A stretch of 64,000 nt of DNA from Acidimicrobiales bacterium (GCA_047974625.1 JBKECK010000068.1:68714-132713); one strand, 5' to 3'; shown: positions 3,001 to 15,498, numbered from the stretch's first letter. Translations and numbers: made by a program. Notes: generated from the sequence alone by a model not told the origin.

Positions 3001-3368
3001 GTGCCGTCCGCACGGCACTCCTGGGGCATCTGGACCCACTGCTGTTTGGGATCGAGCATGACCTCGGCCACCAACGCGTCGGCCGCGCCATCGTTGAGGC
3101 TCAGCTCCACCTGATAAGCAATCGTGTCGTGCAGCCGGACGACGTCATTAGTCGCGTTGGCATCAAGCCCCGCATCGGTGACGGCGACCGGGTCCCAGGT
3201 GGCGCCATCGAACGGTTCCGAACCGGTCTTCGAGGTACTGAGGGTAACCCTTACCGTTGGGACGGCAGCCTCGGCTGCTGGTGCAGTCCACGTCAATGTG
3301 GTTGCCGTGACCGCGGCGACGGCCAGCAGCGCGAGCCAGACTGAACGTGGGGTGCGAGATGTGACCAT
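1..3368 (-). CDS. Large secreted repeat-domain surface (adhesin-like) protein, N-terminal ~1120 codons; the gene continues past the left edge
   Basis: Absent from the ORF track because no stop lies inside the window. The minus frame starting at ATG 3368 is the only frame with no competing listed ORF across 3.3 kb. Hand translation begins MVTSRTPRSVWLALLAVAAVTATTLTWTAPAAEA/AVPT, a Sec signal peptide with an AxA site. It runs through DUF11-like repeat segments (VNAGQTVEFELQ...MDQLPGQTDFV; IVEVDTPIAFDLQYRNLG...FIDVLP). At the window edge it reaches GSIGDRVWL, the usual start of SdrD/Cna-B-type repeats. Confidence 0.7.
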   Translation of the reverse strand, partial: MVTSRTPRSVWLALLAVAAVTATTLTWTAPAAEAAVPTVRVTLSTSKTGSEPFDGATWDPVAVTDAGLDANATNDVVRLHDTIAYQVELSLNDGAADALVAEVMLDPKQQWVQMPQECRADGTPASVIADSATGQPGGDKRLLVCNVGTGSEGTNRVLYPTARVVPVASDGQVTRNDDHVSAMVRAWAQNAEGPSAEATAGPTETTVTAGFKVNLTKSLPVEGVDAEGNPLYQPRYAVGPSNQPGTLMEYVVRATYEPGSMLADSDEVTYQVDYTLLDAYTDDNPNNTTGSGLSSGAIPYTWGPTGSACTLLGDHGAAASITCTPNQVSGDFVSAIGGEPPQDDPTITVQLDNVDVRDPDGDGNLFEFKLTLWHLHTSELDTDPSCLTGVCEIFESNRVGALEGGAQVGFNPYSTEDAGGNNLPNYGGAGEAFPTDSTASFPLRKTSPGGWSASVGWDGLVAWGIPQKATTIEAVAPGDVAFAQANVWDYRMIDGSSDQHCTKIDTSVTEFVGLTGAPAPSTTAYSFNRSTRNPSLVLWAGTTANATHHDPTTYLSFLYSTEPAAALTELQNDTCADDVNSDSVVNIQAADGTQSTPGAVVDWYADAQAVPGGNQAITKIRYQLDIDTDHLNALHPGVDHVAIAVNYDIKVKLGAMGYGPNNLIPLWAVARRSDAAGTWSSWSGVGTGSANPADPSFSYEGAYADRMRVVSSAHSIAKRTVPAGLKVVNAGQTVEFELQPQVLGQWNEATQSTAQIMDQLPGQTDFVFGSERFSVDGGSTWLTFAQYQVSSPDVTMTLAGSSVTPTGHGAAASRLEYHFADIQNSEQLPLIRYQVAVDSSVTSGTFTNSASIDSDMGTDTDGDGASNRRTVKYQVYMEAGTGFDVLKAVADQIVEVDTPIAFDLQYRNLGLEDYSGGSFIDVLPYRGDGDYSGGIQTDRTPASRYSGDYQVTAVSGGNSEVFWATDAEPGSVSVDPCAGSNLALGYVPTDGDLCYRTYSSSGATLPDGQTAGTGTTTWTQCTALSPLECGSLDPADITAIRFDTGVISGAGGAHTVTVTIDPVGNVGGTPAFNPTGRVTGASGGDIYTNNFGGRIPEISLNVISNDVSATVVAGSIGDRVWL

Positions 3369-3532: not shown

Positions 3533-3870
3533 TTGAGAGGACCTAATACGGGAAGGCGTCCGAAGTTTGATGCGGAGTTTTGTGCTCACGCAGTGGAGAT
3601 GGTCGGGTCGTCTGGCCGTCCGAGGTATCAGGTCGCAAAGGATCTGGGTGTTTCTGGCACTACCATCGCGAAGTGGATGGCTGCTGAGAAAACCAATGAC
3701 GATCCGGAACCGTCGTCGGTCTCTGAACGATAGGATTATGAACGTCTCCTGAATGCCGAGCGTGAATGGCAGATGGAACGAGAGATCCTAAAAGGAAATG
3801 AGCTTCTGGGTGAAGGCGTCGACCGGCCGGTTGAAGTACCGGTTCATCGATGCCCAGAACGCCCGGATCG
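3533..3870 (+). mobile_element. Degraded IS3-family transposase orfA relic (in-frame TAG plus frameshift; 3' part missing)
   Basis: 3533-3733 encodes RRPKFDAEFCAHAVEMV...RYQVAKDLGVSGTTIAKWM, an IS3/IS911 OrfA-type HTH. After the TAG at 3731 the same frame continues ERLLNAEREWQMEREILK. The +1 frame then continues MSFWVKAS..RLKYRFIDA, a typical OrfA C-terminus. No orfB/DDE part and no terminal inverted repeats were seen. The relic abuts the 3' end of the YcaO operon, and GC is locally lower. Confidence 0.6.
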
Positions 3871-3905
3871 ATCCTTCGACTGGTGAGCGGGTCGGCGAGT
3901 TCCGT

Positions 3906-5285
3906 TCAGTGCGGAAGAGGTTGCAGACGGAGACCGGTGCCGTTGGCTCGCCTATCCATGCGGGTGCCGCCGAGGAAGGGGAACGCCGCGGCTCCGTTGG
4001 AGTACAGCCCGGAAGCGATCACGCGGACGACACTGAGCCCGGCTCTGCGAACGTCGGAGGTGGTGACATCCACCGACACGGCCCGGATTCCGGCGTCGGT
4101 GAGGGTTGCCACGATCCCGGGGAGGTCCATCGCGGGCGGTGAGCCCAATGGCTCATGCATCTCCGAGTCGAGAAGCGGCCAGGACGTCAGCTCCCGTTCG
4201 AGGTCATCGGCCAACTGGGGGTCGAGGTAGGCCTGCATGTGGCAACCGGGGTCGACTGCGTCATGCCAGTCCGGGCGGTAGTCGAGCAGGTAGGAACGGT
4301 CTTGTCGCCACGGCTTGAGCGGGCTGTCCGGGCTGCGGGTCAGTGGACCGAACGCTGAGTCCGGGTCGTTGAGGTCGGCCATCACGGTCTGAATGTGGGC
4401 CGCCTCGGCGAGCGCCTTCACACACGCCGCCGCGGTCACATCCGGATACCAGGCGGTACCAAGAGTGAGGTAGCCCCGGACCTGATCCCGCATGAGCGCA
4501 CCCACGCAGGGCGCACCGAAATCGCTCGGAAACGTCACGAAGGTAGTGCGCAACTCTCCGGTCGGCCCGGAAGCGAGTCGCTCCAACCAGTGCGGTGCCT
4601 GCAGCCGGGCTCCCGTCGCCCCTGTGGTCCAAGTCAGCGTCATCGCGTCCCGTTCGATGAGTTCCCGCACCGCGCTGGACTCGGCGTGGGTGCGGTCACT
4701 GCCTGCGGCGATGCCAGCGTAGACGGTCGCGTTGGTGATCGGTTCGCCGACGCTGAACCCGTGGGCGAAGTAGTTCGTCCAGACCAGGGAGGCCGGCACC
4801 CACACCGGGGCTCGGGTAAGCACGTCCTGGCCCTCCACCCACCGCACCGGCAAGTCGGGGGGGAACCGGCAGAACGGGAAACCGCGCTCGTTGTACTGGG
4901 CGTCGCTGTACAACGCCAATCCAGTCGGGTCGAGCGCGTCTTCGTCCGCAGCTTGCAACTGCTCGAACGAGGCCCGGCGCAGGCCTGGCGGAACGATGTT
5001 TCCGCTATACCGCTCGGCCGCCTCCCCGATGGCGGCTGCAACGGCTCCTGGTAGGTCCCACAGCACCGATCCCATTCCCGACGGATCGCTGCGCCAGGGG
5101 CAGAACCGCGTCGAATCGGCGATATCTGCTTGGACCAGCTGCAACGCCTGTGGCAGGTGGTCCGGGACAAGGCGTCGAGCGAGCCGGGACACGATCCCGG
5201 TCCGGGAGCCGACGAGTAGGTTCTTCGGGTCGGGGGCGGAGAGGTCGCCCCCGAGGTCCAACTGTGTGTTCGTCATCACGAGCAA
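3906..5285 (-). CDS. YcaO-domain protein, paralog C (last gene of the operon)
   Basis: Motifs AIGEAAERYSGN, LYSDAQYNERGFPFCRF...VRWVEG...VWVPASLV, YAGIAAGSDR...ELIERDAMTLTW and a Pro-rich C-terminal tail LQPLPH. The N-terminal SRTGIV...ADSTRF signature is shared with the other two paralogs. The true start may be GTG 5279 or ATG 5276, downstream of a GGAG. Confidence 0.85.
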   Translation of the reverse strand: MLVMTNTQLDLGGDLSAPDPKNLLVGSRTGIVSRLARRLVPDHLPQALQLVQADIADSTRFCPWRSDPSGMGSVLWDLPGAVAAAIGEAAERYSGNIVPPGLRRASFEQLQAADEDALDPTGLALYSDAQYNERGFPFCRFPPDLPVRWVEGQDVLTRAPVWVPASLVWTNYFAHGFSVGEPITNATVYAGIAAGSDRTHAESSAVRELIERDAMTLTWTTGATGARLQAPHWLERLASGPTGELRTTFVTFPSDFGAPCVGALMRDQVRGYLTLGTAWYPDVTAAACVKALAEAAHIQTVMADLNDPDSAFGPLTRSPDSPLKPWRQDRSYLLDYRPDWHDAVDPGCHMQAYLDPQLADDLERELTSWPLLDSEMHEPLGSPPAMDLPGIVATLTDAGIRAVSVDVTTSDVRRAGLSVVRVIASGLYSNGAAAFPFLGGTRMDRRANGTGLRLQPLPH

Positions 5286-5327
5286 CTCCGTTCAGCGACG
5301 CCCCGGCGAGCAGCGTCAGCCGTGGTT

Positions 5328-6683
5328 TCAGCAGGGCAGCGGGTAGTCACGAGGCGGACCGGGAGCGGCCGCACGGGCAGCATCCAGGCGCGCCCCACCA
5401 AGGAACGGGTAGGCGGCCGGGCCCGAGGAGTACAGCGCCGGGGCGATAACCCGGACGACGACCAGCCCGGTTCGGGCGAAGCCCGACGGGGTCAGGTCGA
5501 CCGACACGGGTGTGATCCCGGCAGCGGCCAACCGTGACAGGAGTTCGTCGGCGGCAGGGCCCGGGGACTGTGTCGGCGACGTTGGCGCTGCGAGCGGCCA
5601 CTGCCCGACGTCGGACTCCAGCCGATCGGCCAGCGCCGGGTCCAGGTACGCCTGCAGGTGACAGGCCGGGTCTCCGGCATCGCGCCAGTCGGGCCGGTAG
5701 CTACTGAGGTACCTGCGGTCGTCACGCCACGGTTTGAGCGGGCTGCTGGGATCGACTCGCAACGCCTCGAAGCCGGAGTCCGGGTCGTCCAGGTCCGCGG
5801 CGATCATCTGGCCGTGTAGGGCTTGGGCGAACGCTTCGTGCAGCGCAGTGCCCCTCACTGTGGCGGGTCGCCAGGAGGTGCCGAGTGTGAGGTAGCCCAA
5901 CGATCGGTCCCGCACCAACACGCCGACGCTTGGAGGGCCGAACTCGCTGGCGAACTCGACGAAGGTGGTCCGCAACCGGCCCGTGGGTCCGCGCCCAAGT
6001 GCGGCGAGGTGCCCGCCCACGTCCAGGCGTCGACCGACCGCTCCGCTGTGCCAGGTGAGTTCGCGCGCGTCTGCCTCGATCAGGCTGAACAGCGCAGCGC
6101 GTTCGGCTGCTTGGCGGGTGGGGCCCGAGGCGATGGCGGTGTGCAGGGTGGCGTGCGTTGCTGCTTCTGGCTCTCCTGTCTCGTCCGGTCGGGCTGTCCA
6201 TGCCAGCGAGGCGGGAACCCAGACCGCTTCGTGGCCGGTCATGGTGCGTCCACGGGCCCACCGCAGCGACAGGTCGGGGTCGAACGGCACGAACGGGAAG
6301 CCGGGAGCGGCGTACTGCGCGTCGGAGTACAGCGACAACGTAGTCGGGTCGAGTACTCGCTCGCCGCCTGCGGTGAGCTCGGCGTACGTGCTGCGCCGGA
6401 GTCGGGCTGTGACGAAATTGCCCGCGTAGCTCTCCACGGCGGCGGCCAGAGCAGCGTGGGTCGCCGCGGCGTCGTCCCACAGAGCCAGGCCGACGACGGC
6501 GACGTCAGTGGTCCACGGCCCGAAGCGGGTGGAGTCTGCCAGTTCGGCGCAGACCACCCGCAGGCACTGGGGCAGGTGCGGTGGAACTCCAGGCCGGAGG
6601 AGGCGTCGGACCAGGCCGGTTCGGGCATCCACCACCACGAGCTGCAACTGGTCGGTCGTTGGCCCCCGCGTCGCCACGTTCAC
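5328..6683 (-). CDS. YcaO-domain protein, paralog B (divergent nucleotide-binding motifs)
   Basis: Same overall architecture (LYSDAQYAAPGFPFVPF...LRWARG...VWVPASLAW, C-terminal DYPLPC). The two acidic motifs, however, read AAAVESYAGN and SLIEADARELTW instead of GEAxERY and ELIERDA. The GTG start at 6683 overlaps the TGA of paralog A (GTGA). Confidence 0.8.
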   Translation of the reverse strand: MNVATRGPTTDQLQLVVVDARTGLVRRLLRPGVPPHLPQCLRVVCAELADSTRFGPWTTDVAVVGLALWDDAAATHAALAAAVESYAGNFVTARLRRSTYAELTAGGERVLDPTTLSLYSDAQYAAPGFPFVPFDPDLSLRWARGRTMTGHEAVWVPASLAWTARPDETGEPEAATHATLHTAIASGPTRQAAERAALFSLIEADARELTWHSGAVGRRLDVGGHLAALGRGPTGRLRTTFVEFASEFGPPSVGVLVRDRSLGYLTLGTSWRPATVRGTALHEAFAQALHGQMIAADLDDPDSGFEALRVDPSSPLKPWRDDRRYLSSYRPDWRDAGDPACHLQAYLDPALADRLESDVGQWPLAAPTSPTQSPGPAADELLSRLAAAGITPVSVDLTPSGFARTGLVVVRVIAPALYSSGPAAYPFLGGARLDAARAAAPGPPRDYPLPC

Positions 6684-8041
6684 GAGTAGGGCAGTGGGTC
6701 ACGCACCAGATCCGCTTCGGTCAGCGGTTCCGATGCCCAGCCGAGGAGGTGCGGTACCTCATAGAGCCGCCGACCGCCGAGCAGGGGGAGCGCTGCGGGC
6801 GCGTATCCGACGAGGCCAGGAGCGAGGACCCGGGTTACGTGCCAGCCAGCGGCGGCTACGTCGGCGCTGGTGCTGTCCACCGCGATGGCCCGTACGCCTT
6901 CGCGCTCGAGCGCGGTCACGCAGTGGAGGAACACGTCGGGGCCGATCTCCGGCATGTCGGCCAGGGACACGATCTCGACGGGTTTCTCGAAGCGGTGGGT
7001 GATTCGCTGCTGGGCCTCCGGGTCGAGGTAGAGCTGGGTGTGCGAGGCGAGGTCGGAGACGTCACGTAGGTCGTCGCGGAAGCTGCGGACATACGACCGG
7101 TCGGCACGGAAGGGACGGTAGGGGTGAGCGTACGCTGCCGCTGACCCGTCCATCGTGTACAGCCGTGCGTCTGGATCGAGCAGTTCGACGCCGAACAGCA
7201 GCCCGTCGATGGCCTCGACCAGCGCCTTGGCCGCGGCCGCAACCGGCTCGCCGCGACTGGCCGCGCCCCAGGCGATGAGCCCCCGCCGAGTGTCGTGTAG
7301 GAACGCACCGACGACTGGGACACCGAAGGTCGTCCGTAGCCACAGCAGTCGACACACGGTGCCCTGCTCATCCAGTTCGGTAGCCCACGCGGCAAGCCGG
7401 CCGTCGGAGTTCACGTCGATCTCGGTTCCGGGGGCTCCGCTCATCCACCAGATCGTCATGGCGTCGCGTTCGATCAGTTCGAGCAGGGCCGAGACGTAGG
7501 CCTGGCCTCGACGCGTTCCCGCCGCCATCCCCGCGTACATCTGGGCAACCGTGGGTTCGCCGGGTGGCGGGAGGTAGTTCAACAGGACCAGGCAGGCCGG
7601 CACGAGCACCTGCGTGTCCGCGACCAGGTCCCGGCCGGGGATCCAGGCGATGGTGGATTCTGCCGTAATCGGTGCGAACGGGAACCCGGGGGTCTCGTAC
7701 TGGCTGGCCGAGTACGGTGCGGCTTGCGCCGGGTCCAGGGCGTTGTGTCCGGATTCCCGTAGTTCTCTGAACGAGGCCCGGGTCAGGCTGGTCGGTTCGA
7801 TGTTGCCGCAGTAGCGTTCGAGCGCCTCCCCGACCGCAGCGGCACGGGCGGCGTCGGGGTTGTCGAGAGCGCTGCCGTGCCCGCACGGGTCGGCGCGCCA
7901 GGTCGCGAACCGGCTGGTGTCCGCCACGTGGGCGGTGAACGCCGAGTGCGAACGCAGGTAGCGATGTCTCGGGTCATCGGGTCGCACCGCGGTGATCAGG
8001 CCGGTACGGCCGTCAACCAAGCGGCCAGAAATACTGCTCAC
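6680..8041 (-). CDS. YcaO-domain protein, paralog A
   Basis: Motifs AAVGEALERYCGN, PYSASQYETPGFPFAPI...IAWIPG...VLVPACLV, YAGMAAGTRR...ELIERDAMTIWW and C-terminal DPLPYS. The start lies 11 nt after the stop of the partner gene. Confidence 0.85.
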   Translation of the reverse strand: MSSISGRLVDGRTGLITAVRPDDPRHRYLRSHSAFTAHVADTSRFATWRADPCGHGSALDNPDAARAAAVGEALERYCGNIEPTSLTRASFRELRESGHNALDPAQAAPYSASQYETPGFPFAPITAESTIAWIPGRDLVADTQVLVPACLVLLNYLPPPGEPTVAQMYAGMAAGTRRGQAYVSALLELIERDAMTIWWMSGAPGTEIDVNSDGRLAAWATELDEQGTVCRLLWLRTTFGVPVVGAFLHDTRRGLIAWGAASRGEPVAAAAKALVEAIDGLLFGVELLDPDARLYTMDGSAAAYAHPYRPFRADRSYVRSFRDDLRDVSDLASHTQLYLDPEAQQRITHRFEKPVEIVSLADMPEIGPDVFLHCVTALEREGVRAIAVDSTSADVAAAGWHVTRVLAPGLVGYAPAALPLLGGRRLYEVPHLLGWASEPLTEADLVRDPLPYS

Positions 8042-8052
8042 CTGAGTGCTGC

Positions 8053-8886
8053 TCAGTCAGCGAAGGCCGGTAGGGGGAGCACCGGGTGGCGGTGCACCAG
8101 CAGATCCACCGGATCCAACTCGATCTGGTCGAGCGCGCCGGGCGGATCCTGTCCGTCGAGGTAGGTGAGGACGTCGGTGACAATGTGCCCGGCGGCAACG
8201 GCGAGCGCACCCGGGCCCGGCCAGGGAACCGGCGGCTTGTGGGCCGCGGAGTCCAAGTAGGCCCAATGCGCCAGCAGCGCGTCTGGGGCACCGGCGGCGG
8301 CGAGCCGGCGGCCGCGGGTGTCGTGATAGCCGGCACTGACCCCCGGGATCGACAAGGGCCCGACGAAGAGCCTGACCCCTTCCATGTAGGCCATGTGCCA
8401 GGCCGTTCCCCCCTCAGCGCACCAGCCCTCCGTCTGCCGCCAGTCGGTGTCAGGGAGCCAACCGACACAGCTGATGAGCAGGTCCGAGCTGTTGACCGAC
8501 TCGGGAGTCAGCGGGTCGGTGTTCAGCTGCACCTCTCCGTCGAGCAAGGCGAGAACCTGGCGACCCAACGGCGTGTCAACACCGCTGACGAGTACCGTCG
8601 CCGCACGGGGCAGCGATTGGGGAGGGCCAGGCCGGCTCAGAAGGCCGCGGGCCATCAAGGCGGCCGCGAAGTGCGCGTGCACGTCGCCGGGGTCCTCTTC
8701 AAGGTGTGCGGCTTCAAGGTGTGCGGCTTCAAGGTGTGTGTCGCCATGAAGCGTGGCAACAAAATGCTCGAACTCCGGGCCGTCCACCTGCAGCCGCAGA
8801 AAGCGATCCTGAGGGGACATTGCGTTCCACGACCCGTCAGCGGTGCGGTAGACGTGGTGGCCGGGGGTGAGCCGAAGGTCGGTCAA
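8053..8886 (-). CDS. E1-like (ThiF-fold, non-catalytic) / RRE-type leader-peptide-binding partner protein for YcaO enzymes
   Basis: 277 aa, immediately upstream of the three YcaO genes. The N-terminal ~70 aa (LRLTPGHHVYRTADGSW...FLRLQVDGPEFEHFVATL) look like a winged-helix RRE. This is followed by a Rossmann-like strand-loop ATVLVSGVDTPLGRQVLALL without a GxGxxG nucleotide loop, as in TOMM/thiopeptide docking proteins. The TTG start at 8886 is preceded by GGAGA with a 7-nt spacer. The family call is by pattern only. Confidence 0.55.
   Translation of the reverse strand: MTDLRLTPGHHVYRTADGSWNAMSPQDRFLRLQVDGPEFEHFVATLHGDTHLEAAHLEAAHLEEDPGDVHAHFAAALMARGLLSRPGPPQSLPRAATVLVSGVDTPLGRQVLALLDGEVQLNTDPLTPESVNSSDLLISCVGWLPDTDWRQTEGWCAEGGTAWHMAYMEGVRLFVGPLSIPGVSAGYHDTRGRRLAAAGAPDALLAHWAYLDSAAHKPPVPWPGPGALAVAAGHIVTDVLTYLDGQDPPGALDQIELDPVDLLVHRHPVLPLPAFAD
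8707..8751. repeat. 15-nt in-frame tandem repeat x3 (cttcaaggtgtgcgg), encoding HLEAA-HLEAA-HLEED in the partner protein
   Basis: Two perfect copies plus a third that differs only at its end, read directly from the sequence. Confidence 0.9.
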
Positions 8887-8920
8887 GGTGTCGTCTCCAC
8901 GCTTGTCAAACAGATAAGGC

Positions 8921-8962
8921 GTGTACCGGCCGAGCCATCAGGCTTCGGATCGGCCGGTACAC
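8921..8962 (-). terminator. Strong hairpin between the precursor ORF and the enzyme genes (candidate partial terminator/attenuator or processing site)
   Basis: Perfect 13-bp inverted repeat GTGTACCGGCCGA (8921-8933) / TCGGCCGGTACAC (8950-8962) with a 16-nt loop that can pair further (GCC..GGC). On the transcribed strand it is followed by GCCUUAUCUGUUUGACAAG, which is U-enriched for this genome but not a canonical U-tract. Confidence 0.45.
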
Positions 8963-9014
8963 GCTCGCATGATGGCCGCCCTCAACGAATGTCAGGGGGG
9001 CGGTACTAGCCCAG

Positions 9015-9164
9015 TCAGTCGTCGGACTGGCTGTCGTCGGACTGGCTGTCGTCGGACTGGCTGTCGTCATCCCAGGCGAACGCAGCGTGCACGAGCGAGT
9101 TGTGCTTGTGCAGGGCGGCGATCGGGGCGGCGGTCTCGATGCTGTCGATTTCGATCGTGGGCAT
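9015..9164 (-). CDS. Candidate RiPP precursor peptide, 49 aa (below the size floor of the ORF track)
   Basis: Minus-strand reading is GGAGGA (9169-9174), AGCT, ATG (9164), 49 codons, TGA (9015-9017). Translation: MPTIEIDSIETAAPIAALHKHNSLVHAAFAWDDDSQSDDSQSDDSQSDD. No in-frame ATG or GTG lies upstream before the stop at 9228-9230. The ORF is on the same strand as, and 128 nt upstream of, the partner/YcaO genes. Confidence 0.7.
   Translation of the reverse strand: MPTIEIDSIETAAPIAALHKHNSLVHAAFAWDDDSQSDDSQSDDSQSDD
9018..9068. repeat. Perfect 15-nt tandem repeat x3.4 (gtcgtcggactggct), encoding the (DDSQS)n core of the small ORF
   Basis: Copies at 9018-9032, 9033-9047 and 9048-9062 are identical, followed by a partial gtcgtc at 9063-9068. 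Confidence 0.95.
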
Positions 9165-9216
9165 AGCTTCCTCCAGTGGCGAGATCCAGTCGGCAGGGCC
9201 GACTAGGACTAGGTGG

Positions 9217-9258
9217 GATAGTAATCGTTATTATTCTCATTTCAGATCCGTGGTGCAA
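9217..9258 (-). promoter_or_regulatory. AT-rich divergent promoter region with a candidate sigma-70-type promoter for the precursor operon overlapped by a Fur-box-like 19-mer
   Basis: Minus strand shows TTGCAC (9258-9253), a 17-nt spacer, then AATAAT (9235-9230). The 19-mer GATAGTAATCGTTATTATT (9217-9235) matches the classical Fur box GATAATGATAATCATTATC at 13 of 19 positions, counted by hand. This is the only strongly AT-rich patch between the divergent precursor and MFS genes. Confidence 0.35.
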
Positions 9259-9430
9259 GTCGAGGTAGATCGGAGTGTTCTGTGACTCGTCGCACTCAGC
9301 CCAGCCGAGGGAACCGGACACCGACCGGGCCGATGTCCGGCGCGGTCAGGGGGCGCCGCACGCGCCCGCACCGCATGGTCTCGGACCCGCCGACGCCGCA
9401 GGCCCGCCGGGACAGGTGGCCCGGTTGCGC

Positions 9431-10669
9431 ATGAGGCTGCGTGAGCGTTACCCGGTCCCGGCGGCCGTGGTTCTCGTGTTGGTGGCACAGTTCGTCGCCC
9501 GCCTGCCCATGGGCATGTACTCGGTGGCGCTCGTGTTGGCGGTCGTGCACTGGACCAGTTCGTTCGCGACAGCCGGTGCTGCCGTGGCCGGTTTCAACCT
9601 TGCCGGTGGTGTGATCGCGCCGTTGGTCGGGCGACTGGCCGACCGTCATGACCCGCGCCCCATCCTTGGTGGCCTCGCTCTCGGACATGCGTTGGCAGTT
9701 GTCCTACTCGTTGCCACCGCCGAGGGGCTTCCCCACGTGGTCTTCCCGGTGCTCGCAGCGGTGGCCGGTGGCTGCATGCCTCCGATCGGGCCGGCGCTGA
9801 AGGCGACGTGGAGCCGACGATTCGATTCCGAGGACCGGGTGCTGCGGGCGGTGTTCGGCCTTGAGTCCGTGCTGGGCGAAGCGGTGTATCTACTGGGTCC
9901 CGCGCTGGCCGGTGCCGCGACCGCGCTCGGCGGGGAGCCGTTCTCGTTGCTCACGGCCGGTGCCCTGACCCTGGGCGGCACCGCAGCGATCATCGCCGGG
10001 TCGACGTTGGCCCACCCGCTCGCAGGAGCGACTCGTTCCGGTCCGAGCGCAGCGGCGCTGCGTTCACGGGGGCTGCAGATCCTGCTCGTGACCCAGGCGC
10101 TGTCGTTCGTCGCGTTCTCTGGGATCAGCCTCGGGGTGCTGGCCCTGGCGGAGGCCCAGGGCTTGTCCGCCACCGGTGCGCTGCTGCTGTCAGTGTGGGC
10201 GGCCGGTGCGGCCATCGGGGCGTTGATCTGGGGGGCGCGAGCCCAGTGGCCGGGTACACAGGCCCAGCAGTTGCACGCCGTGTTGTGGTTGGTCGCCGCC
10301 ACCAGCGGCGCGGTCGCGCTTGCGGGCGCAGCGCTTCCAGCCGTAGCTGCAACAGCAGGCTGGGCGTTGCTGGGCGCAGCCTTGCTGGCGGCGGGCGTGG
10401 CCCTCGCCCCCGGGGCGATCGTCGAGGCGACCCTGGTCGGTCAGGTCACGGCCGTCGGGCGTCGCACCGAGTCCTACGCCTGGCTCGGAACGGCGGCGCT
10501 GGTGGGGTCCGCTGCAGGCTCAGCACTGTTCGGCCTGCTGGTTGCACAGTGGGGAGGGGCAGCCGCCCTGATCGGCGCGGTGGTAACCGCCGCCGCCGCC
10601 GCGATGATCGCCGGCCTGGGACGACCGGCGCTGGAGCTGCCGACGGCTGTCGCGGACCGGGGATCCTGA
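9431..10669 (+). CDS. MFS transporter (putative exporter), divergent from the precursor gene
   Basis: About 12 hydrophobic segments, with MFS-like loops (GRLADRHDPRP after TM2). The track ORF starts at 9275, but its first ~50 codons are Arg/Pro/Gly-rich. ATG 9431 (MRLRERYPVPAAVVLVLVAQF) is the more plausible start. Confidence 0.7.
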   Translation: MRLRERYPVPAAVVLVLVAQFVARLPMGMYSVALVLAVVHWTSSFATAGAAVAGFNLAGGVIAPLVGRLADRHDPRPILGGLALGHALAVVLLVATAEGLPHVVFPVLAAVAGGCMPPIGPALKATWSRRFDSEDRVLRAVFGLESVLGEAVYLLGPALAGAATALGGEPFSLLTAGALTLGGTAAIIAGSTLAHPLAGATRSGPSAAALRSRGLQILLVTQALSFVAFSGISLGVLALAEAQGLSATGALLLSVWAAGAAIGALIWGARAQWPGTQAQQLHAVLWLVAATSGAVALAGAALPAVAATAGWALLGAALLAAGVALAPGAIVEATLVGQVTAVGRRTESYAWLGTAALVGSAAGSALFGLLVAQWGGAAALIGAVVTAAAAAMIAGLGRPALELPTAVADRGS

Positions 10670-10750
10670 CGCCGCCGGCAACGGGCAGGACCTCGGATCG
10701 TTGACGAGCTGTCTGATCGCCGGCCGATCCAGCACCTGTCGGGTGGCATA

Positions 10751-11614
10751 ATGGCGGTCATGGACGGCGGGCTGCACAGAGCGGGATTGATCGGCGGGGC
10801 AGGCCCCCACCGTCGGGTGGTGGCCATCGACACGGGTCCGCTGCTGGCCGTACATGCGCTCGGCGCCGCTGAGCAGCTGGTCGCGGTCAACGCACTGGAC
10901 GACGGGCGGCTTCCGGACGATGCCACCTGGACGGGGCGCCGGCTGGACCAGCGATTCCCGCCCCTGGAAGCCATCATCGACCTCGAGCCGGACCTGGTCG
11001 TCTCGGGTGACAACGAGGCGTTTGAACCCGGCGCCTTCGGAGACCGGTACGCCCTCGCAGATCGGGGCATCGCCAGCTTCCTCTTCGCCGAGGCCGCGAC
11101 CGAAGGAGACGACGACGCCGACCCGGTCACGCTCGAGTCAACGTGGGCGGACCTCACCGCGCTCGGCACAGCCCTCGGTCGCGACGAGGCGGCCGCGCAG
11201 CTGGTCGCCGATCAGCGAGCGGAGCTTTCGGCGGTTCCCGGAGGTTCGGCGGTTCCCGGAGGTAACGAGTCGGTGGTGCTGGTCGTGGATGACTGGTTCG
11301 CCGACGGGTCGATGCTGACCGCTGGCGGGGTGGCGGTCGTGTCAGATCTCCTCCGGCGAGCCGGCTGCCGGGGCACCTTCGACGACCGCCCATGGGCCTA
11401 CGGCACGGTCGCGGCGGACGACCTCGCCGAGCGCCCGCCCGAAGGGGTGCTCGTCAGTGACTACGGCCGTCGTAGCGTCGACGAGAAACTGCGACGCCTG
11501 GGACGGATCGTGGATCTCCACGGAGTCGGGGTCGTCGTGTTGCCGCTGCACACCACCGTGGAGGGGGTCGGCAACGCCGAAGCCATCGCCGAGCTCGCGG
11601 TGCTGCAGAAGTGA
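10751..11614 (+). CDS. FecB/BtuF-type (cluster A/type 8) periplasmic-binding-protein homolog lacking any signal peptide
   Basis: RVVAIDTGPLLAVHALGAAEQLVAV...PPLEAIIDLEPDLVV... is typical of siderophore/cobalamin binding proteins. The ORF is already maximal (a stop lies upstream) and has no signal or lipobox segment. It contains an 18-nt x2 repeat (11227-11262, SAVPGG x2). Confidence 0.5.
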   Translation: MAVMDGGLHRAGLIGGAGPHRRVVAIDTGPLLAVHALGAAEQLVAVNALDDGRLPDDATWTGRRLDQRFPPLEAIIDLEPDLVVSGDNEAFEPGAFGDRYALADRGIASFLFAEAATEGDDDADPVTLESTWADLTALGTALGRDEAAAQLVADQRAELSAVPGGSAVPGGNESVVLVVDDWFADGSMLTAGGVAVVSDLLRRAGCRGTFDDRPWAYGTVAADDLAERPPEGVLVSDYGRRSVDEKLRRLGRIVDLHGVGVVVLPLHTTVEGVGNAEAIAELAVLQK

Positions 11615-11678
11615 CCGCGGACCTCCCACGAGCGCTTCACCTGCCGAGTTGGGTCCGGTACCGGTCCGCGGGGCTGGA

Positions 11679-12461
11679 TCAGTTGGGCCTGAGGCGGACG
11701 CGTGGTTGGCCGTAGACAAGTTGCGGAACACCGTCCGGGCCGTCGACACGGCGGACGCTGATGCCGTAGACAGACTCGATGCGCTCCGGGTGCAGGACCT
11801 CTGACGGCAGGCCCTCGGCAATCACCGCGCCGCGGTTGAGCAGTACCAGCCGGTCGCAGTAGCGCGCCGCCAGGTTGAGGTCGTGGAGAACGATGACGAC
11901 AGACGACGCCAGGCGGCAGACCAGGTCCAGCAGTTCGTGTTGGTAGCGAACGTCGAGGTGGTTGGTCGGCTCGTCCAGGAAGAGGTGGTCGACATCCTGG
12001 GCCAGCGCCCTGGCCAGTAGCACCCGCTGCCGCTCGCCTCCAGAAAGCTCGGTGATCAGATCGTCGGCGCGGTCACGGAGCCCGACCTGGGTCAGCAGCT
12101 CCGCGGCGACCCGGTGGTCTTCAACGTCGTAGCTGAGGAACGGGCCACGTTGTGGGGCCCGGCCGAGCAGCACCATCTCCGCGACGGTCATCGCCAGTTC
12201 CGACACGGGGTCCTGCACCACAACGGCGACGCGGCGAGCGAGGTGGCGTGGGCGCAGGTCGGCAACGTCGTCACCGTCGATCAGGACGCTGCCGCCGCTC
12301 GGCCGGATGGCCTTGTAGAGAGACCGCAACATCGTGGTCTTGCCCGACCCGTTGGGGCCGATGAGGCCGACGATCTCACCGGCCGCCGCCCGAAACGAGG
12401 CGCCGTCGAGGGCCCGCCGCGAGCCGTAGTCGACGGTGACGCGGCGGGCGTCGACGCTCAC
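11679..12461 (-). CDS. ABC transporter ATP-binding protein, FecE/FepC-type (iron-siderophore/cobalamin importer class)
   Basis: Walker A GPNGSGKTT, signature LSGGERQRV and Walker B LFLDEPTNHLD. The GTG start overlaps the stop of the binding-protein gene (GTGA). Confidence 0.85.
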   Translation of the reverse strand: MSVDARRVTVDYGSRRALDGASFRAAAGEIVGLIGPNGSGKTTMLRSLYKAIRPSGGSVLIDGDDVADLRPRHLARRVAVVVQDPVSELAMTVAEMVLLGRAPQRGPFLSYDVEDHRVAAELLTQVGLRDRADDLITELSGGERQRVLLARALAQDVDHLFLDEPTNHLDVRYQHELLDLVCRLASSVVIVLHDLNLAARYCDRLVLLNRGAVIAEGLPSEVLHPERIESVYGISVRRVDGPDGVPQLVYGQPRVRLRPN

Positions 12462-13450
12462 GAGGTGGCGAGTCCCTCGCTGATGATCTGCAGCCCCTCC
12501 AGCGCGGAGGGTGACGGCTCGGCGAAGACCCCCGGGACCGACACGAGGCGGTCGTTCGCTATGGCCTGGAGGTCCTCCGCACCCGGCAGAGCCAGCAGTC
12601 GGCGCATCGTCTCCTCCTCGTCGATTTCAGGGCTCAGGCTGTGGAACAGCACAATGGTGTCCGGGTCGGCCGCGATCAGCTCTTCGATGTTCAGCTCGAA
12701 GAACTGCTCCTGCACATCGCCGAAGACGTTGTCCAGACCCAACTGGTCGAATACTGCGTCGACCACCGAGTCGTCACCGAATGCCGACGGGTCCGCCCCG
12801 AACCAGTAGAGGCCGGCGACCGTCCCACCGCCCTCAACCGGTTCGACGTCCTCAAGGGTGCTGTCGAACTCATCCGCGGCCGCGTCCGCGGTGCCCTGGG
12901 TCCCGAACAGTTCGCCGTAGGTGCGAATGTCGGCGCTGACCAACTCCAGGGCCGAGGCATCCGCCAGCTCGCCGTCGTGGTCGCCGCAGTAGTTGGCGAT
13001 CAAGAGATGGTCGACGCCGGCCGCGGCGAGGTCCTCTGGAGTGGTCTCGAACAGTCCGTAACTGACCACCAGGTCAGCCCCGGTTCCGAGGATCGCCTCC
13101 TGTCCGGGGTCGCCGTCGGTCAGGACCTCGACATCGGCGACCGCTTCCCCGGCCTCGCCCGGTGCCGTCGCGCCGAACTCGCCGGCACGGGACACGATGA
13201 GATCGGACGCACCGGCAGCATGCAGGATCTCGACCGCGACGGTGCCGATGGTCAGAATGCCCTCGGGGGCATCCTCGATCACGACCTCCTCGCCACAGTT
13301 CTCGATGGTCATCGGGAACGAAGCTGCCGTATCGTCGCCCTCGTCGACAGTGGTCGCCGCGGACTCCTCGTTCGGCTCCGCGCTGCTGCAGGCGCTGGCG
13401 ACGAGTACCAGGACCAGGACGGTGACGATCGATGCAATTCGTGTGGTCAC
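12458..13450 (-). CDS. ABC substrate-binding lipoprotein, FecB/siderophore-binding type
   Basis: The real start is GTG 13450, preceded by AGAGGA with an 8-nt spacer. The N-terminus VTTRIASIVTVLVLVLVASAC is a lipoprotein signal with a lipobox Cys. The listed longer ORF (to 13624) overlaps the permease gene. Confidence 0.7.
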   Translation of the reverse strand: MTTRIASIVTVLVLVLVASACSSAEPNEESAATTVDEGDDTAASFPMTIENCGEEVVIEDAPEGILTIGTVAVEILHAAGASDLIVSRAGEFGATAPGEAGEAVADVEVLTDGDPGQEAILGTGADLVVSYGLFETTPEDLAAAGVDHLLIANYCGDHDGELADASALELVSADIRTYGELFGTQGTADAAADEFDSTLEDVEPVEGGGTVAGLYWFGADPSAFGDDSVVDAVFDQLGLDNVFGDVQEQFFELNIEELIAADPDTIVLFHSLSPEIDEEETMRRLLALPGAEDLQAIANDRLVSVPGVFAEPSPSALEGLQIISEGLATS

Positions 13451-13469
13451 GAACAGGTTCCTCTCTGGA

Positions 13470-14609
13470 TCAGGGATTGGTGGGAGTCTTGGGGGCTGTG
13501 CGGCGGAGCAGCAGAACGATGAAGGGGGCCCCGACCAGGGAGGTGACGACGCCGATGGGCAACTCACGGGGGGCGAACGCGACGCGGGCGAGGATGTCGG
13601 CGCCGACCAGCAGGGCAGCCCCACTCAGGGCGGCGACGGGTAACAGCCGACGGTGGACACCGCCGACCAGCCGGCGTGCCAGGTGGGGAACCACCAGGCC
13701 GACGAATCCAATGGTGCCCGACACCGCGACCATGACGCCGATGCAGAGTGCGACCAAGACGAGCGTGTTCGTGCGGACCCGCGTCGGGTCGGTGCCGAGG
13801 GTCCGTGCGGTCTCGTCGCCGGCAGCGATCGCGTCGAGGGACCTGCTGAGGGCGATGAGGACGAGCAGCACGACGACAACGGTCAGCATGGGGACCGCCA
13901 CACTCGACCATCGGGCCTGATCGAGGCCGCCGAGCAGCCAGAACAGCACCGCTCGGGCACCCTCCCGGGCGTCAGAGGCGAAGATGGTGAAGCTGGTCAG
14001 CGCCGACAGGGTGTACCCGACGGCGACCCCTGCCAGGATCAGGCGGATCGCCGTCGCCGGTCCGCCCAGCCGTGCCAGCGCGAAGACCAGGCCGATGGCA
14101 GCCAACCCCCCGACGAAGGCGCTGCCCGCCAACGCGTTTGCCCCCAGCGCGCTGCCCACCCCGAACAGGATGCTGAGCGACGCCCCGAACGACGCGCCCG
14201 AGGAGACGCCGAGCAGGTAGGGATCGGCCAGCACGTTGCGGACCAGAGCCTGGATCGCCACCCCGCAGATCGACAGCCCCGCCCCGACGGCAAGGCCCAG
14301 CAGCACCCTGGGTGTCCGGACCAGCCAGACGATGTTGTCCTGCGTCGTGGTCCAGGTGACCTCCGCAGGGACGCCGACGGTGTGATGACCGATGACCGAC
14401 CAGACAACGTCCGGAGGGATCGGCACCGGGCCCAGGGCCACGCCCAAGGTGACAACCGCCACCAGCGCCGCCGCGGTTCCCAGGGTCCAGATCAGAACCT
14501 GCCGACGCCGACGGTTGTAATCCAGGTCGTCGGTGAACTCAGGTGCCGGCTCATCGGGTTCGGCACCTCCAAGCGGCACCGCCTGGCGTTCGACGTCGGC
14601 CTGGCTCAC
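13470..14609 (-). CDS. FecCD-family ABC permease
   Basis: Polytopic membrane protein with typical FecCD segments (LLGLAVGAGLSICGVAIQALVRNVLADPYLLGVSSGASFG...; C-terminal VVTSLVGAPFIVLLLRR). Confidence 0.85.
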   Translation of the reverse strand: MSQADVERQAVPLGGAEPDEPAPEFTDDLDYNRRRRQVLIWTLGTAAALVAVVTLGVALGPVPIPPDVVWSVIGHHTVGVPAEVTWTTTQDNIVWLVRTPRVLLGLAVGAGLSICGVAIQALVRNVLADPYLLGVSSGASFGASLSILFGVGSALGANALAGSAFVGGLAAIGLVFALARLGGPATAIRLILAGVAVGYTLSALTSFTIFASDAREGARAVLFWLLGGLDQARWSSVAVPMLTVVVVLLVLIALSRSLDAIAAGDETARTLGTDPTRVRTNTLVLVALCIGVMVAVSGTIGFVGLVVPHLARRLVGGVHRRLLPVAALSGAALLVGADILARVAFAPRELPIGVVTSLVGAPFIVLLLRRTAPKTPTNP

Positions 14610-14824
14610 ATCCTCTCCGACCGGTAGGTGGCGAGTGGCGTGTGGTGGGAGTCGCCCGCGCCGAGAAGCGCCCGGATCTCCGTTGCGGTTGGCCCCACAG
14701 CGCCGCCTCGGCGACGAGCGACGCGAGGGTGACTAGCCCGACAGCCAAGCACGTGAGGACCGGTCCGGCGACGGCTCCCACCAGGTGGAGTAGCAACAAT
14801 GCAGACGGTGGAGCACGTGGGGAC

Positions 14825-14861
14825 GATAACACTGGCAGGAATGAGAACCAGTATCGTTATC
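14825..14861. promoter_or_regulatory. AT-rich imperfect palindrome upstream of the FecCDE-type operon (candidate operator)
   Basis: GATAACACTGG-cAGGAATGAGAA-CCAGTatcGTTATC. It contains the octamers AATGAGAA (14840-14847) and ATCGTTAT (14853-14860). Both also occur in the precursor promoter patch: ATCGTTAT at 9224-9231, and TTCTCATT (the reverse complement of AATGAGAA) at 9234-9241. Confidence 0.3.
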
Positions 14862-14930
14862 TAGTGTTTAGGTCGATCGACTCACCACATGATCCTGGAC
14901 TTCGACTGGCGACGGTGACTCGGCCGCGCC

Positions 14931-15130
14931 ATGGCTGGATCGATCGCGTCTCCGGTGCTGGGGGGGATGCTCGTGGATGCCGCGGTCGCGGTGGATGTCC
15001 CTTATCAACGTTCCGCTGGGGCCGGTGGCGATCGTAATCAGCGCCGCGAGCGGGACGGGAGCAGGTTCGACCTGCTCGGCGCGCTCCTGCTCGGGGTTCG
15101 TCCCCCAGCCCCGGGAACCACCCCGTGCGG
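14931..15130 (+). pseudogene. Relic of a DHA2 (EmrB/QacA-type) MFS transporter gene, short and frameshifted
   Basis: Three consecutive pieces lie in two frames: GSIASPVLGGMLVDA, then RWMSLINVPLGPVAIVISA, then RFDLLGALLLGV. Together they reproduce the conserved TM5-TM6 region (G.LGG.LVD..WRW.FLINVP.G) of DHA2 transporters. No intact ORF is present. Confidence 0.5.
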
Positions 15131-15498
15131 ATCGCCTCGGAGCGTCTGCGAGGCGATATTCGCCGACTCGATCGCCGACGATGTGATGAAGTGATCTCCA
15201 GGCGTCGGCTCCGGCGGGCAGGGGGTTCCAGTTGGAGCCCCGGTTCCCCAGGTCGGGGCCCGTCATCGGCGAAGGGTTCGACTCCCCACCGGTCGGCCCT
15301 CGGCACCACACGCTCGGCGTGACTCAACGAGACGGCTCTGCGGGCTTCGGGCCCCCGTCGACTCGATGAGGGTGTCGGGGGTCGGCTGCCATGGGTCCGG
15401 TCCGGCACGTCCGGAAGCGATTGCGCCGTGGCCGGATGAGGCCCCCGCCGCGTCCGTTCTCACCCCCCACTCACTCGAATGACCCGAAGGAGGCCACG

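Follow-up and report, generated by a model that had tools for sequence, protein, structure and literature searches.

The closest described counterparts of the locus reported here are the streptamidine (ami) gene clusters, which direct the production of peptides synthesized ribosomally and modified after translation (RiPPs) and have been described from over 230 species (Russell et al. 2021, PMC8442711). A typical ami cluster carries genes for the precursor (amiA), an E1/RRE-like partner (amiB), a hydrolase (amiC), a YcaO enzyme (amiD) and a dehydrogenase (amiE), together with exporters and four fecBCDE-like genes (amiF1-4); amiC and amiE are essential in the type cluster and missing from many relatives (PMC8442711). 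Streptamidine is a dehydrated HLSATH hexapeptide that carries an amidine, not azolines, and its biological role was stated as unknown by its discoverers, who reported the fecBCDE linkage and proposed metal import (PMC8442711). Here we describe an island of high-GC DNA (positions 3533-15130) in a 64,000-nucleotide stretch of an Acidimicrobiales bacterium genome (GCA_047974625.1, JBKECK010000068.1:68714-132713; hereafter the window), which homology of its precursor, partner and enzymes places in this family as a divergent, three-YcaO variant. We consider it probable that this horizontally spread cluster and the importer beside it both lie under Zur-type operators and respond to zinc limitation.

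In the mechanism that we favor, the conserved unit comprises the precursor, an AmiB-like partner, three YcaOs and an exporter of the major facilitator superfamily (MFS), adjoining a type II (FecBCDE-like) ATP-binding cassette (ABC) importer. A zinc-sensing repressor of the Fur family would keep both units off, and zinc limitation would turn both on together as part of the zinc-starvation regulon of the organism. By homology with AmiA, the product would derive from a short His-containing segment just upstream of NSLV (ALHK/H), whereas NSLVHAAFAW and the acidic DDSQS tail would serve as recognition and follower sequences and be removed. The MFS protein would then export the product. The features of the island are:

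3533..3870, plus strand: relic of an IS3-family orfA (transposase helix-turn-helix) at the left border; PF01527 match, internal stop
3906..5285, minus strand: YcaO3, an active-looking SagD-type YcaO; PF02624 E=4.5e-41, TIGR03604 245 bits
5328..6683, minus strand: YcaO2, a degenerate paralogue of YcaO3; PF02624 E=7.6e-35, TIGR03604 below cut-off
6680..8041, minus strand: YcaO1, an active-looking YcaO; PF02624 E=1.4e-57, TIGR03604 285 bits
8053..8886, minus strand: AmiB-like partner (E1-like/leader-binding), 277 aa; weak TIGR03882 match, E=6.5e-5
9015..9164, minus strand: precursor MPTIEIDSIETAAPIAALHKHNSLVHAAFAWDDDSQSDDSQSDDSQSDD, 49 codons, from translation; sub-threshold NF040715 match, 19.3 bits
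9018..9068, no strand assigned: perfect 15-nt x 3.4 tandem repeat coding for (DDSQS)x3, from Tandem Repeats Finder (TRF)
9222..9241, no strand assigned: Zur-type box 1, reading AATGAGAATAATAACGATTA on the minus strand; matrix score 20.3 bits
9275..10669, plus strand: predicted MFS exporter, divergent from the precursor; PF07690 E=5.5e-16
10751..11614, plus strand: leaderless Peripla_BP_2 protein; PF01497 E=3e-12
11679..12461, minus strand: ABC ATPase of the importer; PF00005 E=8.9e-33
~12458..13450, minus strand: Peripla_BP_2 substrate-binding lipoprotein; PF01497 E=5.7e-14, lipobox LVASAC
13470..14609, minus strand: FecCD-family permease, single gene; PF01032 E=1.6e-89
14840..14859, no strand assigned: Zur-type box 2, AATGAGAACCAGTATCGTTA; matrix score 20.1 bits
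14931..15130, plus strand: frameshifted fragment of a DHA2-type MFS gene at the right border, from a three-frame reading only

The list of open reading frames (ORFs) and the family searches agree with the gene content and coordinates claimed for the island in an earlier, sequence-only reading of the window, and the genes lie where that reading had placed them. No further family match was returned for the remaining ORFs in 3533-15130, and neither the ORF list nor the family searches revealed an S15 peptidase or nitroreductase gene in this interval.

The association between the peptide operon and the importer is conserved. Among related loci (given L-numbers, of which L044-46 is a stromatolite-metagenome contig and L049 a second cluster in the same genome), we counted those that had sufficient flanking sequence and a partner with an identity of 33% or more (n=27). 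A FecCD permease gene was present within 10 kb in 21 of them, usually with an ATPase and a binding protein, compared to a chance adjacency of about 2.6% estimated from the six FecCD loci in the 4.7 Mb of the organism's own genome. The same linkage was found in all 6 loci of ami architecture with a YcaO match, in the stromatolite locus and in the cluster on contig C81. It recurs across at least 10 genera and in different gene orders and, because the order varies between lineages, must have been kept through rearrangements. These results speak against the peptide operon and the FecBCDE-type importer being neighbors by accident, and they bear out the co-occurrence of YcaO and FecBCDE genes on which the sequence-only reading had depended.

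The closest relative is the stromatolite locus, the only other one with three YcaOs, in which genes for FecCD, a binding protein and an MFS transporter occupy one strand and those for the precursor, partner and three YcaOs the other. The enzymes and the MFS protein are 75-87% identical between the two loci (76% for the MFS protein). The stromatolite importer operon is interrupted by a DDE transposase gene (L044:2359-3135) between the FecCD permease and ABC ATPase genes. In relatives, the partner gene is usually separated from two YcaO genes by one for an S15 X-Pro-peptidase-like protein, and some relatives also have a nitroreductase gene.

The importer operon runs convergently to the MFS and leaderless binding-protein genes, and its proteins gave few clues to their ligand. 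The best NCBIfam matches of the ATPase are type II importer ATPases, all below the cut-off, and a PDB sequence search with both binding proteins returned structural-genomics or generic entries that offer no hint of a ligand. For the lipoprotein at 12458-13450, the nearest solved structures are uncharacterized or Fe-hydroxamate-type binding proteins. The protein at 10751-11614 lacks both a signal peptide and a lipobox, and its reading frame allows no start further upstream. At the corresponding place behind the MFS gene, L044 has a full-length secreted binding protein, to which the island protein is 30% identical over 115 aa; the island protein also holds a twofold SAVPGG repeat. It may be a cytoplasmic binding protein or the decaying remnant of an older importer operon.

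The promoters of the two units are tied by one metal-sensor-type box. Two octamers, AATGAGAA (11 copies in the 4.7-Mb genome) and ATCGTTAT (13 copies), lie within 40 nt of each other at two places only, namely the promoters of the precursor/MFS genes and of the importer. The two island promoters, the two promoters of the C81 cluster and the stretch just upstream of a znuA-family gene account for five of the 11 copies of AATGAGAA. The octamers are the two arms of one box of approximately 20 bp (AATGAGAAT-A-ATAACGATT and AATGAGAAC-C-AGTATCGTT). Box 1 is located in the 110-bp divergent region, at a distance of 58-77 nt from the precursor ATG and of 34-53 nt from the MFS start, upstream of both, and aligns column for column with ATGATAACGGTTGTCAT in the L044 promoter, its positional orthologue. 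Small ORFs in the stretch from the permease start to box 2 seem not to code for protein. A simple scan of 8880-9300 for sigma-70 promoters and terminators found nothing.

We searched both strands of the genome (9.4 million positions) with a matrix made from seven published Zur boxes of Mycobacterium avium (PMC4298942). The top distinct sites were at an SBP_bac_5 gene and a COG0523 gene (ranks 1-2), the C81 precursor promoter and an AMP-binding gene (ranks 3-4), a C9 site of unknown context and a false match inside the rpsF coding sequence (ranks 5-6) and the two island boxes (ranks 7-8). When the C81 palindrome was used as the consensus, the best matches in the genome lay directly upstream of two CobW/COG0523 genes, an SBP_bac_5 lipoprotein gene, the gene of an AMP-binding enzyme in a non-ribosomal peptide synthetase (NRPS) region and an Fe-type alcohol dehydrogenase gene; only such a consensus, taken from the genome's own sites, recovered the sites at the second COG0523 gene and at the alcohol dehydrogenase gene. 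Typical markers of a Zur regulon are COG0523, znuABC and zinc-free enzyme paralogues (PMC6103462). The shared box, which groups with the COG0523 and znuA sites, fits a Zur-type operator and not a classical iron Fur box, and Zur would be the likely regulator. The AT-rich "Fur-like box" of the sequence-only reading is therefore real and non-random, but its assignment to iron and Fur gives way to a motif that fits Zur.

The cluster on C81 (L049; C81:2500-11700) is a second, paralogous streptamidine-type cluster in the same genome. It starts with a MatE exporter gene, followed by the perfect palindrome AGGAATGATTCTCATTCCT in the promoter of a 26-aa precursor (MTFSKVSTRPKAAAFCSANHAVTRHR) and the partner gene, and continues with an unidentified ORF (~370 aa) that shares its frame with the gene after it, followed by two YcaO genes, a GGAATGTGAATGAGAATGA box and genes for a binding protein, FecCD and an ATPase. 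Elsewhere in the genome, the predicted members of the Zur regulon include the SBP_bac_5 lipoprotein gene with the best box of all (C89:29357-30989), a second CobW/COG0523 gene (C10:4586-5597) and the Fe-type alcohol dehydrogenase gene (C14:10676-11941). In C85:2500-16000, a Zur-type box precedes a stand-alone AMP-binding enzyme in the company of an NRPS adenylation fragment, two FecCD permease genes and a COG0523 GTPase gene with the second-best Zur-type box in the genome, making this a candidate zinc-regulated non-ribosomal metallophore region. The sequences around the rpsF start at C60:830-900 and C81:148410-148480 are near-identical, which could reflect a duplication or an artefact of assembly or contamination (the genome is listed with ~5% contamination).

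Metal-sensor-type boxes also precede precursor genes across the family. With the same matrix, 25 related loci out of 35 gave matches of at least 14 bits in the 200 nt preceding the precursor, against about 0.34 expected from the match rate elsewhere in the same loci, a comparison in which kin are not independent although at least 10 genera are represented. The 23 bona fide streptamidine precursors recovered with NF040714 (60-69 bits) from 301 Streptomycetaceae genomes all have a near-perfect Zur box 92-117 nt upstream of the match, scoring up to 36 bits (for example, AATGAAAATCATATTCATTA); a search with NF040714 confined to the genus of L028 had found none, and the family-level search succeeded. 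A single-YcaO subfamily with HTPAVD..F.W precursors (Herbidospora, Acrocarpospora, Nonomuraea) has two to three tandem TTGCGA-N5-TCGCAA palindromes and no Zur-like boxes. These palindromes, located approximately 40-126 nt upstream of the precursors at L017, L019, L023, L025 and L030, fit the Nur consensus tTGCaa-N5-ttGCAA (PMC2691836) and suggest that the HTPAVD branch is under nickel-responsive control. The streptamidine paper does not mention Zur (PMC8442711), and literature searches for Zur with YcaO, for ribosomal zincophores and for YcaO with fecBCDE returned nothing relevant beyond it. The idea of metal import, which the sequence-only reading also put forward, had already been proposed there (PMC8442711); what the present comparison adds is the putative Zur- and Nur-type operators on precursor genes throughout the family.

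The precursor alignment identifies the segment most likely to become the product. The island precursor can be divided into a leader, the core-equivalent ALHK(H), the recognition/follower motif NSLVHAAFAW and an acidic tail. It scores 19.3 bits on NF040715 ("streptamidine-related RiPP repeat protein"), for which the cut-off is 45, and is also below the cut-off of NF040714; the family's conserved ALV-containing motif takes the form NSLVHAAF, which aligns with NALVENPF of AmiA. Small ORFs at the partner loci of Dactylosporangium, Amycolatopsis, Frankia, Rhodococcus and Protofrankia reach 70-119 bits on NF040715. Bona fide precursors read ...GQLA-HLSATH-SNALVENPF-DDAVEADTA..., and in a joint alignment the island precursor matches AmiA from leader to tail: HLSATH falls on A17-L18-H19-K20, NALVENPF on N22-SLVHAAF29 and the acidic tails on each other. 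A loss of the Pro of NPF tracking the loss of the S15 peptidase was considered and rejected, as L004, L005, L044 and L047 keep the Pro without the peptidase.

The sequence-only reading had instead treated the Asp-rich tail with its regularly spaced Ser residues as the core of an oxazoline/carboxylate chelator. That tail is encoded by a young, perfect repeat (9018-9068; 100% matches between copies, TRF score 102). The stromatolite precursor, accompanied by the same three YcaOs, keeps MPTIEID.IE....IAALHKHNSLVHA.FAW, ends in GDDSPVGNESA and lacks the DDSQS repeat; many other relatives with the same enzymes have no Ser in the tail. A second perfect tandem repeat (15 nt x 2.8) lies near the precursor repeat, at positions 8697-8738 in the partner gene, and the locus seems prone to forming perfect repeats in frame. 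As judged from homology, the Asp/Ser tail is probably a follower and not the core, and because it aligns with the AmiA follower the oxazoline-plus-carboxylate argument falls away. The conserved Ser/Thr/Cys-rich core of azol(in)e-forming thiazole/oxazole-modified microcin (TOMM) systems has no equivalent here: the Ser-rich tail is unconserved and ALHK(H) contains no Ser, Thr or Cys. We infer that the short His-containing segment would undergo backbone, amidine-type chemistry. The likely product segment of the island precursor is accordingly moved from the DDSQS tail to the part upstream of NSLV.

The modifying enzymes are consistent with a divergent branch of the family. YcaO1 and YcaO3 pass the TIGR03604 cut-off and YcaO2 does not. 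YcaO3 retains the GEAAERY and ELIERDA motifs and is 85% identical to the third YcaO of L045. Its paralogue YcaO2 (51-53% identity) has lost the Glu and Arg in both ExxER motifs (AAAVESY, SLIEADA), and the same loss is seen in the stromatolite orthologue (83% identical). YcaO1 shares 87% identity with the first YcaO of L045 and 35% with the YcaO in the AmiD position of L038; members of its clade are placed after the partner, or after an AmiC-like peptidase, in relatives. Two active-looking YcaOs with a conserved, inactive-looking paralogue, and without a hydrolase or dehydrogenase, appear to make an unusual enzyme set.

Among 5.8 billion proteins, only 22 are homologous to the partner. When one genome was scanned for each species, homologues turned up at 41 loci, next to streptamidine-related precursors or small ORFs and YcaOs, with 27-44% identity in the genome loci and 75% in the stromatolite contig. 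A search of 59 genomes from the organism's genus, family and order did not recover the partner gene, which fits a horizontal spread of the cluster.

The borders of the island are less secure than its contents. On the left, the stretch 3533-3733 matches PF01527 marginally (E=4.7e-5; 24.0 bits against a cut-off of 24.1); an orfA relic is plausible, with a visible internal stop and no orfB downstream. On the right, successive frames read GSIASPVLGGMLVD, then, in a shifted frame, RWMSLINVPLGPVAIVISAAS, and then FDLLGALLLG. The ORF at 14931-15194 has no Pfam match in a single frame, and tblastx of both relics against the same genome returned high-GC noise only, so that the MFS relic rests on the frame reading. 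The bracketing relics of the sequence-only reading thus hold marginally on the left and by frame reading on the right, and they are the weakest parts of what was otherwise confirmed. Mapping of the borders by comparison was not feasible, for genomes of the same genus share an ADH/CoA-transferase pair and no wider synteny. To the left of the island, an open frame of more than 1122 codons (positions 3-3368) runs off the window edge; it has no significant Pfam match, the only hit being DUF6087 at E=0.028.

Several observations weigh against zinc-controlled production and recovery of a chelating peptide. Streptamidine failed to bind Fe, Co, Cu, Mg, Mn, Ni or Zn in chrome azurol S (CAS) and liquid chromatography-mass spectrometry (LC-MS) assays, and the amiD mutant had no metal-starvation phenotype (PMC8442711). 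Furthermore, amiF1-4 are required for streptamidine production, and the loss of production upon amiF deletion is not predicted by a simple role in re-import (PMC8442711). Compared to the stromatolite importer, the permease and the ATPase are each only 41% identical and the binding proteins 25-30%; against the 75-87% seen elsewhere in the locus, such low identity indicates that the importer module was exchanged and that it and the importer of the nearest relative are not orthologues. In a comparison with permeases from the fetched loci and the organism's own genome, the closest one, at 63% identity, belongs to a second Fec operon adjoining the L004 cluster. A quick permease tree of 33 rows contained two well-supported clades of cluster-linked importers, but with its long branches and unresolved backbone it neither shows nor rejects a single origin for them. 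The island boxes are degenerate (14/20 matches to the mycobacterial consensus), box 2 is approximately 230 nt upstream of the permease start, and a strict TGAAAATNATTTTCA scan allowing up to 4 mismatches gave no site in the window and, over the genome, largely noise from coding sequences. At znuA the box reaches just 14 bits, and PF01297 also includes Mn and Fe binders. Finally, the genome has four Fur-family genes (C14:19998, C77:3020, C31:40419 and C10:36442), each a candidate for the regulator. The negative streptamidine assays, the amiF requirement and the non-orthologous importer together argue against a simple export and re-import model. They would agree with a peptide that is co-regulated with the importer under zinc limitation but acts as a signal, a competition factor or another product of zinc starvation and not as a chelator, the FecBCDE-type system importing some other ligand or serving biosynthesis or induction. 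In line with this, the binding protein has not co-evolved with a near-identical core, and its nearest solved relatives are generic or hydroxamate-type. We nonetheless regard a non-chelating product as unlikely, albeit deserving of serious attention, because biosynthesis, exporter, importer and metal-sensor-type operator are all present in the standard layout of a metallophore locus, the division of Zur-like and Nur-like boxes by subfamily fits metal-specific ligands, and the variable core-equivalent segments often contain His.

The island could also be a mosaic assembled by horizontal transfer, with AT-rich boxes that are no shared operator and an importer for heme, cobalamin or a xenosiderophore. 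The flanking relics, the exchanged importer and the absence of the partner gene from related genomes are compatible with such an origin, and the matrix favors AT-rich DNA in a genome of 70% GC. This explanation is improbable, however, when two rare octamers co-occur at these two promoters only in 4.7 Mb, both promoters are among the eight best distinct sites of the matrix, the orthologue keeps box 1 at the same position and the importer linkage is repeated in so many genera and gene orders. We give hardly any credence to the chemistry originally envisaged, in which a DDSQS core with Ser-derived oxazolines and Asp carboxylates would chelate Fe(III) under iron control by Fur and return as a siderophore. 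Two of the YcaOs do exceed the cut-off for azoline-forming enzymes, the tail does combine many Asp with regularly spaced Ser, and the importer does resemble siderophore systems; yet the repeat is recent and absent from an orthologue with the same enzymes, the tail aligns with a follower that lacks Ser in relatives, the characterized product of the family has an amidine, and the box groups with zinc-related and not iron genes. What endures of the metallophore-locus reading is the functional or regulatory linkage between the peptide operon and the importer, without the Asp/Ser chemistry or the iron/Fur control. Zinc-limitation control of both units, with export of the product by the MFS protein and a putative role in zinc (metal) homeostasis, is the reading that we prefer.

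More tentatively, the whole streptamidine superfamily, with the three-YcaO variant among its members, could make ribosomal metallophores: short His-containing peptides with amidine-type modification, whose release would be governed by metal-specific sensors of the Fur family (Zur in most lineages and Nur-like in one subfamily) and which would be recovered via FecBCDE-type importers. We hold this generalization as possible but doubtful. If true, the superfamily would be the first class of ribosomally synthesized zincophores or nickelophores. It would also explain why the role of streptamidine has been so elusive: the hexapeptide is perhaps a fragment of a larger product, as its discoverers suspected (PMC8442711), or the assay conditions were wrong. 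Streptamidine-type clusters are present in more than 230 actinobacterial species, including model streptomycetes, and the metal-sensor-type operators make the unknown role of their peptides directly testable and revive an abandoned guess about metal import.

Other known systems place the island in context. Methanobactins and bufferins are, like the predicted island product, ribosomal modified peptides with a metal-handling role and dedicated transport genes, but they are made by MbnBC/MNIO enzymes instead of YcaOs, handle copper and differ in ligand chemistry and regulators. The coelibactin NRPS cluster of Streptomyces coelicolor resembles the island in that a Zur box precedes biosynthetic genes and transporters, the regulon including znuABC and COG0523 genes as well (PMC6103462). 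Coelibactin is, however, non-ribosomal, whereas the island product would be ribosomal, and zinc binding was negative for streptamidine. The streptamidine cluster of S. albidoflavus J1074 shares with the island an AmiB-like partner, a YcaO, an exporter, adjacent fecBCDE-like importer genes and a Zur-type box upstream of the precursor. The precursors are homologous throughout, from the leader and variable core to the N-A/S-L-V...F motif and acidic tail, although the core-equivalent is shorter in the island (ALHK/H versus HLSATH) and its tail is enlarged by the tandem repeat. The island has three YcaOs (one degenerate) where the streptamidine cluster has one, lacks the AmiC S15-type hydrolase and the AmiE nitroreductase-type dehydrogenase, and carries an MFS exporter where that cluster has the ABC exporters AmiT1/T2, along with a single permease gene in place of two. 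Compared to the two-YcaO clusters with NF040715 precursors in Frankia, Rhodococcus, Dactylosporangium and Amycolatopsis, the island lacks the S15 X-Pro peptidase-like gene between partner and YcaOs and the frequent duplication of precursor modules, and it has a degenerate third YcaO that they do not have. Their partners are 38-44% identical to that of the island and their YcaO clades match YcaO1 and YcaO3. Furthermore, these clusters adjoin an operon for a FecCD permease, an ATPase and a binding protein, and carry a Zur-like box 36-42 nt upstream of the precursor.

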